Below are positions 3,565-39,596 of a stretch of DNA of 39,651 bases, piece by piece. The stretch lies in the sequence record PQ850620.1, one strand, 5' to 3'. The notes below the pieces were generated by a model. It saw only the letters and a program-made list of their open reading frames with translations. It did no database searches and was not told the DNA's origin. Position 1 is the first letter of the stretch. Each line of letters starts with the position of its first letter. Origin of the DNA: Escherichia phage MeretOppenheim_Bas102. The translations under genes were made by a program, and so were the position numbers.

Positions 3565-3576
3565 CTGTTACAACCT

Positions 3577-3740
3577 CCTAAAGTATCCTCCTAAAGTATC
3601 CTCCTAAAGTCACCTCCTAAAGTCCTTCCTAAAGCCAACACCTAAAGCCTACACCTAAAGACCCATCGAGTCAACGCCTATCTTAAAGTATAGACCTAAA
3701 GACCAGACCTAAAGACACCACATAAAGACCATACCTAAAG
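3577..3740 (+). repeat. left-end array of CCTAAAG heptamer repeats
   Basis: about ten copies of CCTAAAG (and close variants such as CTTAAAG and ATAAAG) spaced 4-15 bp apart, read directly from the sequence; known feature of the T7 left end. Confidence 0.8.
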
Positions 3741-3802
3741 ACGCCTTGTTGTTAGCCATAAAGGGATAATCTTCAATCATTGTCTTTAACCATTGTCTTT
3801 AT

Positions 3803-3825
3803 TAATACGACTCACTATAGAGAGA
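3803..3825 (+). promoter_or_regulatory. T7 RNAP promoter phiOL
   Basis: TAATACGACTCACTATAGAGAGA near the genome left end, upstream of A1. Confidence 0.85.
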
Positions 3826-3881
3826 CTACTTAAAGAGGCCTTAAAGATGGATTAATTTAAAGATTTATTAAAAAAAGAGTA

Positions 3882-3917
3882 TTGACTTTAAGTCTAACCT
3901 ATAGGATACTTTGAGCC
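3882..3917 (+). promoter_or_regulatory. E. coli sigma70 early promoter A1
   Basis: -35 TTGACT (3882-3887), 17-bp spacer, -10 GATACT (3905-3910); matches T7 A1 architecture. Confidence 0.85.
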
Positions 3918-4007: not shown

Positions 4008-4044
4008 TTGACAACATGAAGTAACATGCAGTAAGATATTAAGC
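4008..4044 (+). promoter_or_regulatory. E. coli sigma70 early promoter A2
   Basis: -35 TTGACA (4008-4013), 18-bp spacer, -10 TAAGAT (4032-4037). Confidence 0.85.
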
Positions 4045-4113: not shown

Positions 4114-4149
4114 TTGACAACATGAAGTAAACACGGTACGATGTACCAC
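4114..4149 (+). promoter_or_regulatory. E. coli sigma70 early promoter A3
   Basis: -35 TTGACA (4114-4119), 17-bp spacer, -10 TACGAT (4137-4142). Confidence 0.85.
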
Positions 4150-4328: not shown

Positions 4329-4691
4329 ATGGCTATGTCTAACATGACTTACAACAACGTTTTCGATCACGCTTACGAAATGCTGAAAGAAAATATCCGT
4401 TATGATGACATCCGCAACGCTGATGGTCTGCACGATGCTGTTCACATGGCTGCCGATAATGCAGTACCGCACTACTACTCCGACATTTTCAGTGTGATGG
4501 CAAGCGAGGGCATTGATCTTGAGTTCGAGGACTCTGGTCTTATGCCGGACACCAAGGACGTAATTCGCATCCTGCAAGCTCGCATCTATGAGCAACTAAC
4601 GATTGAACTCTGGGGAGACGCTGAGGACTTACTGAACGAGTACCTTGAGGAAGTCGAGGAAGAGGAAGACTACGAAGAGGACGAAGAGTAA
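4329..4691 (+). CDS. ocr: Ocr (gp0.3), DNA-mimic anti-restriction protein
   Basis: 120-aa highly acidic [32 protein letters not shown]... ending in [14 protein letters not shown]; first gene after early promoters A1-A3. Confidence 0.93.
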
Positions 4692-36600: not shown

Positions 36601-37655
36601 TGGTTGGTACTCTTCGTTTCGGCACTCAGGAGTTAGCGGCTCGTTCCCCATGGACGGTAATGCTTAATGGAACAACAAACTACATTATCGACGCAGCCCG
36701 TCAGGGTGTGCTAGGGGATATTGCCAGCGCAGCACTATCAGGGACTGGTGCCAAGTTTGGTAAGGCAAATTATCTTAAGTCTGCCTCAATCAGTCCTGAG
36801 CATTGGAATGGTATCAAGCAATTATTTCGGGACCACACCACTCGTGATGCTAACGGTAAGTTCACAATCAAGGACAAAAGGGCGTTCACCTACGACCCAC
36901 GCACAATGGATTTGTGGAGACTTGCTGACAAAGTGGCTGGAGAGACAATCATGCGACCCCATAAGATTTCCTCTCAAGATTCGGTTGCGTATGGTGCTGG
37001 TGTAAAGATGGTAATGCAATTTAAGAACTTCGTTATTAAGTCGCTTAACGCCCGATTTGTCCGTAGCTTTTATGAGGCCACAAAGAACAACCGTGCGTTA
37101 GACCAAGCGTTAACTCACATTGTTTCCTGTGGGCTTGCTGGTGGCTACTTCGTTGGACAGGCGCACCTAAAGGCCGCTGCCTTACCTGAGGACAAACGTA
37201 AGGAGTACCTCAAGATGGCACTAGACCCGAAGATGATTGCTCATGCGTCTATCTCCCGTAGCTCACACTTAGGTTCGCCACTTAGCATCTACGATATGAT
37301 CGCTGGGGTGTTTGGTGATGATACCTATAAATACACACGCTCCACGATACTACCTAAGCAACCAGAGGAACGAGATCGCACAAAAGCGGTCACAGGTCGT
37401 CAGGTTACTGGTATGATTAGCGGTGCTTTAGGCGAGCAGATTCCCGCTTTGGGGTTCGCAGGGCAGGTTGGCGGTACGGCACTTAATGCTATATCGCTAC
37501 TGAAAGCGCCTAACAAGGCTACCGAGATGGAGTTCCGTACAGGGATGTTTAATACCATGCGTGAGATTGTTCCGAACGACCCTATCACGCAGCAACTCAT
37601 TATGAAAATTTATGAGGCAAATGGTATCCACATCAAGGAGACACCTAGGAAATAA
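33681..37655 (+). CDS. 16: internal virion (core) protein D with N-terminal lytic transglycosylase domain (gp16)
   Basis: 1324-aa ORF MDKYDKNVPSDYDGLFQKAADANGVSYDLLRKVAWTESRF... (SLT-like motif ESRF); stop TAA doubles as start of phi17. Confidence 0.95.
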   Translation: MDKYDKNVPSDYDGLFQKAADANGVSYDLLRKVAWTESRFVPTAKSKTGPLGMMQFTKATAKALGLRVTDGPDDDRLNPELAIDAAAKHLAGLVSKFDGDELKAALAYNQGEGRLGNPQLEAYTKGDFSAISEEGRNYMRNLMDVARSPMIGQLEAFGGITPKGKGIPSDVGLGDIKVEGKRKVTDAIPESTGLDIKGIEQEAPAKSFATDFWDHHKQKPSEYDDRSTFFGFKDAASAEIDNSVLGMAFRAGRLDNSFDVFKDVITPTRWNSTIWTHEELERIRTEVKNPAYLNVVTGGSPENLDDLIRLANENYENDLKKADAGIGAQLSAGVVGSAFDPLSYVPLVGVTGKGFKLINKALVVGAESAAINMASEGLRTSIVGGDANYTGAVLGGLVFGAGMSAISDTIAAGLRRSKPEAEFNNEFVGPLMRMEARETAFNANSVDMSKMNTDSTKFDREYSGVNYAPLDTEPGAVVLPQGQILSDTNPLNPQTLSEFEAINPERAARGISLGGFTEIGLKTLRSENTGVRSIARDLVRSPTGMESGSNGKFGSTADDIHSRLSSNDNRDWNLYYDKMKEVMKDPEFTVGAPKMSKAEAVEFIDRKIGLAIEHPELQVNLSPKELDLMRHVKGHYDLKRELMENPAVFGNPKAVNIFPDSRNKGTYIPRVYDTQLKNFHIQRLGSREAFQRAIAESSLASYYLRPAVKARIDEHLMEVNGLKSTKDVTHEMVRKHAMDKAYGISHTDQFSASSIVDENITGLVGIENNNFLEARNLFDTDVPITLPDGSTFSVDDIRVFSQRILMPAYDRRVNGDIAIMGSSGKTTKELKDEIMALSKQAEGNGKLKGEVEALKDTVKILTGRARRSPEGALGTALRSLNDLTFFAKNFYMPLQNFTEIGAMLIKGNVSAVTHGIPMINDWVNRRKPMRASEIKELHSMVFGKELDQLIRPSREDHIRRLRESTDTNAVLANVVGTLRFGTQELAARSPWTVMLNGTTNYIIDAARQGVLGDIASAALSGTGAKFGKANYLKSASISPEHWNGIKQLFRDHTTRDANGKFTIKDKRAFTYDPRTMDLWRLADKVAGETIMRPHKISSQDSVAYGAGVKMVMQFKNFVIKSLNARFVRSFYEATKNNRALDQALTHIVSCGLAGGYFVGQAHLKAAALPEDKRKEYLKMALDPKMIAHASISRSSHLGSPLSIYDMIAGVFGDDTYKYTRSTILPKQPEERDRTKAVTGRQVTGMISGALGEQIPALGFAGQVGGTALNAISLLKAPNKATEMEFRTGMFNTMREIVPNDPITQQLIMKIYEANGIHIKETPRK

Positions 37656-37675
37656 TACGACTCACTATGGGGAGA
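37653..37675 (+). promoter_or_regulatory. T7 RNAP promoter phi17 (variant at -1)
   Basis: TAATACGACTCACTATGGGGAGA: consensus except G instead of A at -1; first TAA is the gene 16 stop. Confidence 0.8.
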
Positions 37676-37727: not shown

Positions 37728-39596
37728 ATGGCTAACGTAATTAAAACCGTTTTGACTTACCAGTTAGATGGCTCCAATCGTGATTTTAATATTCCGTTTG
37801 AGTATCTAGCCCGTAAGTTCGTAGTGGTAACCATTATTGGTGTAGACCGCAAGGTCCTTACGATTAATACAGACTATCGTTTTGCTACTCGTACTACCAT
37901 CTCACTGACCAAGGCTTGGGGTCCAGCGGATGGATACACGACCATCGAGTTGCGCCGAGTAACCTCCACGACAGACCGCTTGGTTGACTTTACGGACGGC
38001 TCAATCCTCCGTGCGTATGACCTAAACGTTGCTCAGATTCAAACGATGCACGTAGCGGAAGAGGCCCGTGACCTTACTGCTGATACCATAGGTGTCAATA
38101 ATGATGGTCACTTGGATGCTCGTGGTCGCCGTATTGTGAACCTAGCGAACGCTGTGGATGACCGTGACGCTGTTCCGTTCGGGCAACTTAAGACCATGAA
38201 CCAGAACTCGTGGCAGGCGCGTAATGAGGCTCAAGGTTTCCGTAATGAGGCTGAGACTTTCAGAAATCAAGCGGAGGGCTTTAAGACTGAGTCTGGCACT
38301 AACGCTGCTAATACGAAGCAGTGGCGTGATGAGACCAAAGGTTTCCGAGATGAAGCTGAGCAGTTCAAGAATACTGCTGGTCAATATGCTACATCTGCTG
38401 GCAACTCTGCTACCGCCGCACATCAATCTGAGGTAAACGCTGGGAACTCCGCTACAGCCTCCGCTAATTCCGCTAATTTGGCAGAACAGCAAGCAGACCG
38501 AGCGGAACGCGAAGCAGACAAGTTGGGTAACTGGAATGCACTTGCAGGGGCCATTGATAGTGTCGATGGTAACAATGTCATGTTTAAAGGGGACATTCGA
38601 ACACCAAATAACATTGTAGGTGGTGGCTTAATCTCCAACGGTGCTGGTCATTTTGAGAAAGGAGTGCGTATTAGAGAGGGATTAGATGTTATAGGGGACA
38701 TTGCGGCACATAAGGATGTGTGGGTAGATGGTGTGGTTGTTGCCAATGGCGGTATACAGCAACAATCAGGGCCTAATTCAAGTAACGATATGTGGCGACT
38801 GTATATTAAAGGGGGACCACGGTATATCGGATACAGCCAAGGTCTTCATCTTGGTTGGAACGAGAGCGGTGGGTGGGGTGAATCATGCTTTGTTACTAAC
38901 AAAGGCGCAGGTAGCGGAGGTTTTGTTTTCCGCACGGTAAACTTTGAGAACAGTGTTGAGATTGGTCGCGTTACATTCAATGGTAACGGTGGGGTACGCG
39001 CCTACGATTTCCAAACAGTTAATGGTGCTCGTATTGAGGCTGGGAATAATATAGTTTGCGCGAGCATCTTCGCAGGAATGGGCGGCTGCGCGTTAGATAC
39101 TGTAGGTAACTTAGTAAACGGTGTATGGAACAACGTTGGTGGTGATTTGTATAACTACCTACAGAACAAGTCCCACTTCGCTAAGCCACCTGCTGGGGTT
39201 AAATTGTTTACATCACGCGGTGGTGACTACCTTGAGGGTGTGGTGGATGCTACCGCTGTTGGGTTCCGCTGGTTCAATTCTGACAGAAGGCTTAAAGAAA
39301 ACATAAAGGTTGTACGTTCCGCTGATGATATGCTTAAGATTATCCGCTCATACATCCCGGTTTCCTATAAGTATAAGGACTCTGAGCATGTTGATAAGCG
39401 CGGCAGAACGGTAAGTGTTACTGGTAAGAACTCTCGTGCCGGTTTCATTACTCAGGATTTGATTCGAATCTGGCCAGAGGCGGTTGACGTACTATCCGAT
39501 GGTATGCAATCTCCAGACCCTAACCAAATCATTGGCGGACTAATGCTTCTTGTCAAGAACCTTGACGAACGCGTACAGGAGTTGGAGAAAAAATAA
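37728..39596 (+). CDS. 17: tail fibre protein (gp17), mosaic: T7-like N-terminal tail-attachment/coiled-coil region, divergent receptor-binding region, C-terminal S74-type intramolecular chaperone domain
   Basis: 622-aa ORF; residues 1 to ~285 recognisable as T7 gp17 (MANVIKTVLTYQLDGSNRDFNIPFEYLARKF...); downstream sequence differs from T7 as I recall it; C-terminal ~105 aa begin with SDRRLKENI, the conserved cleavage-site signature of self-cleaving chaperone domains. Confidence 0.9.
   Translation: MANVIKTVLTYQLDGSNRDFNIPFEYLARKFVVVTIIGVDRKVLTINTDYRFATRTTISLTKAWGPADGYTTIELRRVTSTTDRLVDFTDGSILRAYDLNVAQIQTMHVAEEARDLTADTIGVNNDGHLDARGRRIVNLANAVDDRDAVPFGQLKTMNQNSWQARNEAQGFRNEAETFRNQAEGFKTESGTNAANTKQWRDETKGFRDEAEQFKNTAGQYATSAGNSATAAHQSEVNAGNSATASANSANLAEQQADRAEREADKLGNWNALAGAIDSVDGNNVMFKGDIRTPNNIVGGGLISNGAGHFEKGVRIREGLDVIGDIAAHKDVWVDGVVVANGGIQQQSGPNSSNDMWRLYIKGGPRYIGYSQGLHLGWNESGGWGESCFVTNKGAGSGGFVFRTVNFENSVEIGRVTFNGNGGVRAYDFQTVNGARIEAGNNIVCASIFAGMGGCALDTVGNLVNGVWNNVGGDLYNYLQNKSHFAKPPAGVKLFTSRGGDYLEGVVDATAVGFRWFNSDRRLKENIKVVRSADDMLKIIRSYIPVSYKYKDSEHVDKRGRTVSVTGKNSRAGFITQDLIRIWPEAVDVLSDGMQSPDPNQIIGGLMLLVKNLDERVQELEKK

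Follow-up and report, generated by a model that had tools for sequence, protein, structure and literature searches.

An extra 13-bp repeat unit upstream of the phiOL promoter as one instance of repeat-number variability in T7-like left ends

The duplicated motif described immediately upstream of phiOL, a promoter for T7 RNA polymerase, was found to be real. It consists of a single additional 13-base unit within non-coding, repeat-rich DNA of the window (the whole 39,651-bp stretch of DNA analysed here), and exemplifies the variability in repeat number that is general to T7-group left ends. The extra unit is very probably a neutral, or nearly neutral, length polymorphism.

The exact 11-mer CATTGTCTTTA occurs twice on the plus strand, at 3778-3788 and at 3791-3801, and no third match was found in the whole window, even with one mismatch allowed. 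The 52-nt string in which the initial annotation had noted the repeat lies at 3774-3825, starting one base before the 3775 given there. Tandem Repeats Finder reported a period of 13, with 2.5 copies and 89% matches, over 3770-3801. The two full periods, TCTTCAATCATTG at 3770-3782 and TCTTTAACCATTG at 3783-3795 (both on the plus strand), are 85% identical, differing at two of the 13 positions. The repeat unit is thus really 13 bp long, with the exact 11-mer falling between two positions at which the copies differ. The copies stand head to tail without a spacer and are followed by a partial third unit, TCTTTAT (3796-3802, plus strand), which forms positions -24 to -18 of phiOL and is identical in T7; positions -22 to -18 (TTTAT) are all A/T. 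The second copy of the 11-mer ends at 3801, leaving the single base T3802 before promoter position -17. In PGX1 and YpP-Y, which have one-unit alleles, the lone unit matches unit 1; unit 2 accounts for the 13 bp that are extra compared with T7, although either unit could be the 'extra' one, since the two are in tandem. By itself, the 11-mer repeat is only slightly unlikely: when a genome of the window's size was simulated 300 times with a first-order Markov model, exact, non-overlapping 11-mer repeats within 30 nt arose 0.2 times per genome, and 14% of the genomes had at least one. The duplication is considered real because the relatives differ from one another by exactly one 13-nt unit.

The window is about 92% identical, over long stretches, to the Escherichia phages C5, N30, JeanTinguely, and T7, its nearest database records, all of which belong to the genus Teseptimavirus. 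Given this level of identity, the genome probably represents a separate Teseptimavirus species. Ten sites with no more than three mismatches to the 23-bp T7 RNA polymerase promoter consensus were found in this T7-like window, where none would be expected by chance, and a looser scan returned 15 T7-type sites. Relative to the T7 map, the window is circularly permuted: its position ~3405 is the counterpart of T7 nucleotide 1, which puts the duplication, in a non-coding region, approximately 370-400 bp away from the physical left end. At 2837, ~570 bp upstream of ~3405, a consensus promoter occupies the place expected for the right-end promoter phiOR. Another T7-type promoter, at 37653-37675, carries G instead of A at -1 (TAATACGACTCACTATGGGGAGA), and is otherwise a perfect match to the consensus. 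In T7 and phage 13a, the region that contains the duplication is annotated with the terminal repeat, the leftward promoter A0, and phiOL, followed by A1, A2, and A3, and the window aligns collinearly here with the left ends of both phages, in which phiOL is annotated.

In the window, phiOL (TAATACGACTCACTATAGAGAGA, -17 to +6) occupies 3803-3825 on the plus strand, with +1 at 3820, and is syntenic with the feature annotated in 13a and T7. It shows one mismatch (+2 G>A) to the 23-bp consensus TAATACGACTCACTATAGGGAGA, and no such site is expected by chance. The promoter is directed rightward and is located between the terminal repeat and short-repeat arrays on one side and A1-A3 on the other, upstream of the first gene; the first sizeable rightward open reading frame after it spans 4329-4691. 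An A/T-rich stretch with three TTAAAGA repeats (3830-3871, plus strand) is the positional counterpart of the A/T-rich region that follows phiOL in T7. It precedes a sigma-70-type promoter-like site (3882-3910, plus strand), which corresponds by position to the host RNA polymerase promoter A1, and A2-like and A3-like sites at 4008-4037 and 4114-4142. The initial annotation noted that phiOL appears closer to consensus here than in T7, and this was borne out, with one mismatch in the window versus two in T7 (TAATACAACTCACTATAAGGAGA: -11 G>A and +1 G>A). Position -11 is polymorphic among the relatives: all eight two-unit genomes have G, and the 14 one-unit genomes are divided between G (eight) and A (six). 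The association between the two-unit allele and -11 G is weak; it could reflect plain linkage, or be a hint of linked selection. Among the relatives, a variable (GA)n/(GACA)n microsatellite makes up the initially transcribed region of phiOL. It reads GAGAGA in the window (3820-3825), GAGAGAGA in JacobBurckhardt, and GAGAGAGACAGACAGAGAGAC in JeanTinguely, with a similar sequence in EmilieLinder, and consists of a run of ~14 GA followed by GATAGATAGACAGAGAGAC in YpP-Y. The GTCTTTA flank was not shared by the other T7-type promoters of the window, which have AAAT- or GAAAT-type flanks instead.

The distribution of the extra unit was established from left-end sequences of fourteen GenBank phages and from T7-like IMG/VR contigs. 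Eight natural genomes were found to carry two units and 14 to carry one, with a difference of 13 nt, and the alignment revealed a clean 13-nt indel in a context that is otherwise alignable. The two-unit genomes are the window, JB01, 13a, LNA7, ESh1, ESh2, the IMG/VR contig UViG_3300045988_001011, and AH67C600_Q5, the last with a variant second unit. Measured from GCCTTGTTGTT, the promoter core is 64-67 nt away in the window, JB01, 13a, ESh1, ESh2, and UViG_3300045988_001011, versus 51-54 nt in T7, JacobBurckhardt, PGX1, NC-A, C5, and five more IMG/VR contigs. LNA7 and AH67C600_Q5 have the two-unit spacing, at 62-65 nt when measured from an anchor one base shorter than GCCTTGTTGTT, and direct reading of the sequences showed a single unit in N30, JeanTinguely, EmilieLinder, and YpP-Y. 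When a 47-nt query containing both units was used in a BLAST search, the T7 records among the matches listed aligned over a 34-nt span, 13 nt shorter than the query; T7 laboratory records, in which one unit aligns with either half of the query, dominate this search. T7 does have a single copy, as the initial annotation noted, in agreement with the alignments. When metagenomes were scanned with the conserved upstream anchor GCCTTGTTGTTNNNNATAAAG, the matches listed were almost exclusively due to chance, apart from one T7 contig.

Alignment with the T7 left end had been proposed as a check on the duplication, and its outcome was divided: T7 is indeed without the duplication, but some of its relatives share the duplicated motif. 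Within the two-unit genomes, the copies have diverged at a few of the 13 positions, and which positions these are varies from phage to phage; the corresponding 11-mers are CATTGTCTTTA and CACTGTCTTTA in 13a, and CATAGTCTTTA and CATTGTCTTTA in UViG_3300045988_001011. The duplication is neither peculiar to this genome nor a recent event in it. Because JB01, 13a, and others carry the same allele, and because the copies have already diverged, the two-unit allele is an old length polymorphism shared among wild Teseptimaviruses. It is already present in public genomes, including that of the annotated phage 13a. The allele does not track the similarity of the flanking DNA: the two-unit genomes ESh1 and AH67C600_Q5 are only 78-82% identical downstream, whereas the one-unit genomes T7 and NC-A are 91-93% identical. 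Such a pattern would fit either recombination among mosaic phages or recurrent gain and loss of the unit.

At the repeat, Escherichia phage JB01 (MW074885) agrees with the window completely, with 100% identity across the 47 nt spanning both units; the identity is 99.1% over 116 nt, but drops to 89% when the surrounding 801 nt are compared. The left end of the genome is thus mosaic, with 99% identity to JB01 over the 116 bp around phiOL and 89% over 801 bp, and JB01 is a mosaic relative of the window phage rather than the same phage. Escherichia phage 13a (EU734174 / NC_011045), in which phiOL is annotated at 423-445, has the same two-unit architecture (TCTTCAATCATTG-TCTTTAATCACTG-TCTTTAATAC) and the same order of terminal repeat, CCTAAAG arrays, phiOL, A1, A2, and A3. 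Its second unit differs from that of the window at two positions, its promoter edge differs by 3 nt (TCTTTAATAC versus TCTTTATTAATAC), and its phiOL start region reads AAGGAGAGAGA instead of AGAGAGA; the identity to the window is 90% over 116 nt. In T7 (V01146 / NC_001604, phiOL start at nt 405), the promoter occupies the same position, the 13-bp phasing of the CTTTA motifs is shared, and so are the flanking CCTAAAG arrays and the A1-A3 promoters. T7 has one 13-bp unit fewer, however, and its phiOL has A at both -11 and +1.

Between the terminal repeat and phiOL, the DNA behaves as a variable-number repeat region with a period of 13 bp. It is dominated by arrays of CCTAAAG-type short repeats with this period, located at 3574-3742 on the plus strand, whose copy number varies among the relatives. 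The T7 genome paper of Dunn and Studier from 1983 is said to describe the left-end CCTAAAG short-repeat array of T7. Among the relatives, the spacer that separates the terminal repeat from phiOL is 173-292 bp long and contains 7-17 copies of TAAAG, the longest array being that of EmilieLinder. All but one of the close exact repeats of at least 11 nt in the window are found at 3574-3801, with a spacing of 13 or 26 bp. The sole example outside the left end is CGTAATGAGGCT, which starts at 38220 and at 38241 (21 bp apart; 38220-38253). The CTTTA motifs of the duplicated units, at 3784 and 3797, are spaced by 13 bp, the same period as that of the arrays at 3574-3742. Placed in register by manual comparison, the 13-bp units match the upstream array units at eight of 13 positions; they do not contain the 7-bp core CCTAAAG on the plus strand, but only TAAAGA(C) on the opposite strand.

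Expansion at the same place has also occurred in the laboratory. In the evolved T7 record OL964750 (clone T7_1t3), the locus at ~360-460 contains four tandem 21-bp copies of AATCATTGTCTTTATTAATAY, a head-to-tail amplification which, like the phiOL duplications reported in evolved T7 lines (PMC6171733), shows that the stretch is prone to slippage or unequal recombination. The laboratory unit includes positions -17 to -12 of phiOL, whereas the natural unit is 13 bp long and is free of promoter sequence, and the laboratory amplification arose under selection in an engineered background. A literature search on evolved T7 accessions and CCTAAAG repeats gave nothing usable, and the source study of OL964750 was not found by it. 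Copy-number change at the site is independently supported by this fourfold amplification and by the 7-17 copies of the neighbouring arrays.

The extra unit most likely arose by slipped-strand mispairing, or by unequal recombination, between TCTTTA motifs located 13 bp apart in a one-unit allele. T7, with its one unit, already has CTTTAAT and CTTTATT 13 bp apart (cCTTTAATCATTG-TCTTTATTAATAC; CTTTA at -19 and -6), and pre-existing motifs of this kind would serve as the substrate for mispairing. Slippage, which the initial annotation had put forward, is a plausible origin, as the one-unit allele has the 13-bp-spaced motifs and the same spot expands in laboratory T7. The sequence fits slippage and unequal recombination alike.

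The extra unit probably has no functional consequence, or a very small one. From -29 to -18, the flank of phiOL reads CATTGTCTTTAT both in the window and in T7; this segment is left unchanged because the copies are in tandem, and no change in promoter strength is predicted. The duplication would merely move the DNA upstream of about -30 further away by 13 bp. The upstream effects reported on T7 promoters concern positions -22 to -18, and reflect A/T content (PMC11053036). Several other roles for the repeat were rejected. A scan for promoter sites found no sigma-70-like site created by the duplication, and a search for small open reading frames or structured RNAs found no frame of at least 25 amino acids covering 3770-3802 and no Rfam match over the repeat. 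The preferred pentanucleotides of T7 primase are GGGTC, TGGTC, and GTGTC; the 5'-TTGTC-3' of the unit is not on this list, and a primase site was discarded on that basis. Retention of TCTTTA in nearly all copies in all of the phages counts against neutrality, and could mean constraint rather than shared ancestry.

A functional role of the unit in cis, as an inverted-orientation member of the TAAAGA(C) short repeats whose copy number matters, is very unlikely. In one version of this proposal, the extra GTCTTTA, phased at 13 bp, would add a binding site for a putative phage or host protein; in another, the extra unit would lengthen an interrupted inverted repeat formed with the upstream ATAAAGAC...TAAAGAC units. 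Such an element could act on left-end maturation or packaging, on the use of a secondary origin, or on DNA entry. The proposal draws on the fact that GTCTTTA is the reverse complement of TAAAGAC, and on the spacing of the GTCTTTA units, which equals the period of the upstream arrays. Between 3250 and 3900, TAAAG occurs 20 times on the plus strand and four times on the minus strand, and two of the latter are the duplicated units. The inverted repeat I2 (3722-3742 versus 3782-3802) has 21-nt arms that are 81% complementary, and a predicted single-strand DNA fold pairs both GTCTTTA motifs with two TAAAGAC motifs at -8.8 to -9.2 kcal/mol (z of about -1.9 to -2.3). In the relatives, however, the fold is at background level, with z values between -0.3 and -1.4 in genomes with one unit and of -1.1 in both ESh2 and the IMG/VR contig, and a GTCTTTA/TAAAGAC hairpin or cruciform was rejected as weak (about -9 kcal/mol, z of about -2) and not kept. 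The paired bases are invariant among the relatives, so that the fold is without a covariation signal to read. Furthermore, the likeness of the units to the upstream repeats is confined to a hexamer or heptamer in A/T-rich DNA, and the unit copy number varies freely among viable wild phages. No protein is known to bind these repeats. It is also very improbable that the TCTTTAAYCATTG units, as inverted members of the enigmatic TAAAG short-repeat system found at either side of T7-group genomes, next to their ends, tune a phiOL-linked process through their number and their 13-bp phasing beside the promoter. If they did, the process tuned would be polymerase-driven genome entry, firing of a left-end origin, or left-end maturation, and the tuning would act through a putative binding protein or through DNA structure.

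Adaptive tuning of phiOL strength by the duplication, for example through upstream DNA contacts or bending, is considered highly improbable. This reading takes as its analogy the promoter duplications that are selected in the laboratory when transcription driven by T7 RNA polymerase is limiting. Duplications in the phiOL region were observed in four of four experimentally evolved T7 lines, and were interpreted by the authors as compensating for weak transcription and entry by T7 RNA polymerase (PMC6171733). These duplications, the amplification in OL964750, and the presence of the stronger-looking -11 G phiOL in every two-unit genome would all be in keeping with adaptive tuning. Unlike the 21-bp laboratory unit, however, the natural unit includes no part of the promoter (-17 to +6). 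Its upstream copy is followed by ACCATTG, not TAATAC, and so does not create a second promoter; a single site was found here. The reported upstream effects are, moreover, limited to -22 to -18, within a segment (-29 to -18) that is the same as in T7. The initial annotation had raised the possibility of adaptation near the left-end promoter, of which no indication was seen, these 12 promoter-proximal nucleotides being unaltered.

That the repeat is due to chance, or to an error of sequencing or assembly, is extremely unlikely, even though close exact 11-mer repeats did appear in simulated genomes at the frequency given above. The 47 nt recur unchanged in JB01, the same two-unit structure is found in records obtained independently from other sources (13a, LNA7, ESh1, ESh2, and the IMG/VR contig), and genomes with one unit are shorter by exactly 13 nt, one whole unit, in an otherwise alignable context.

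Read as a nearly neutral length polymorphism, the duplication is an ordinary finding, one that assigns the DNA just upstream of phiOL to the repeats of T7-group left ends, which have a 13-bp period and vary in copy number. One-unit and two-unit alleles segregate in wild phages, and may serve as a strain marker, and the same spot also expands during laboratory evolution. Awareness of this variability is useful when T7-like left ends are aligned or engineered, and the polymorphism would be of wider interest only if the short repeats at T7 genome ends proved to be functional and sensitive to copy number.
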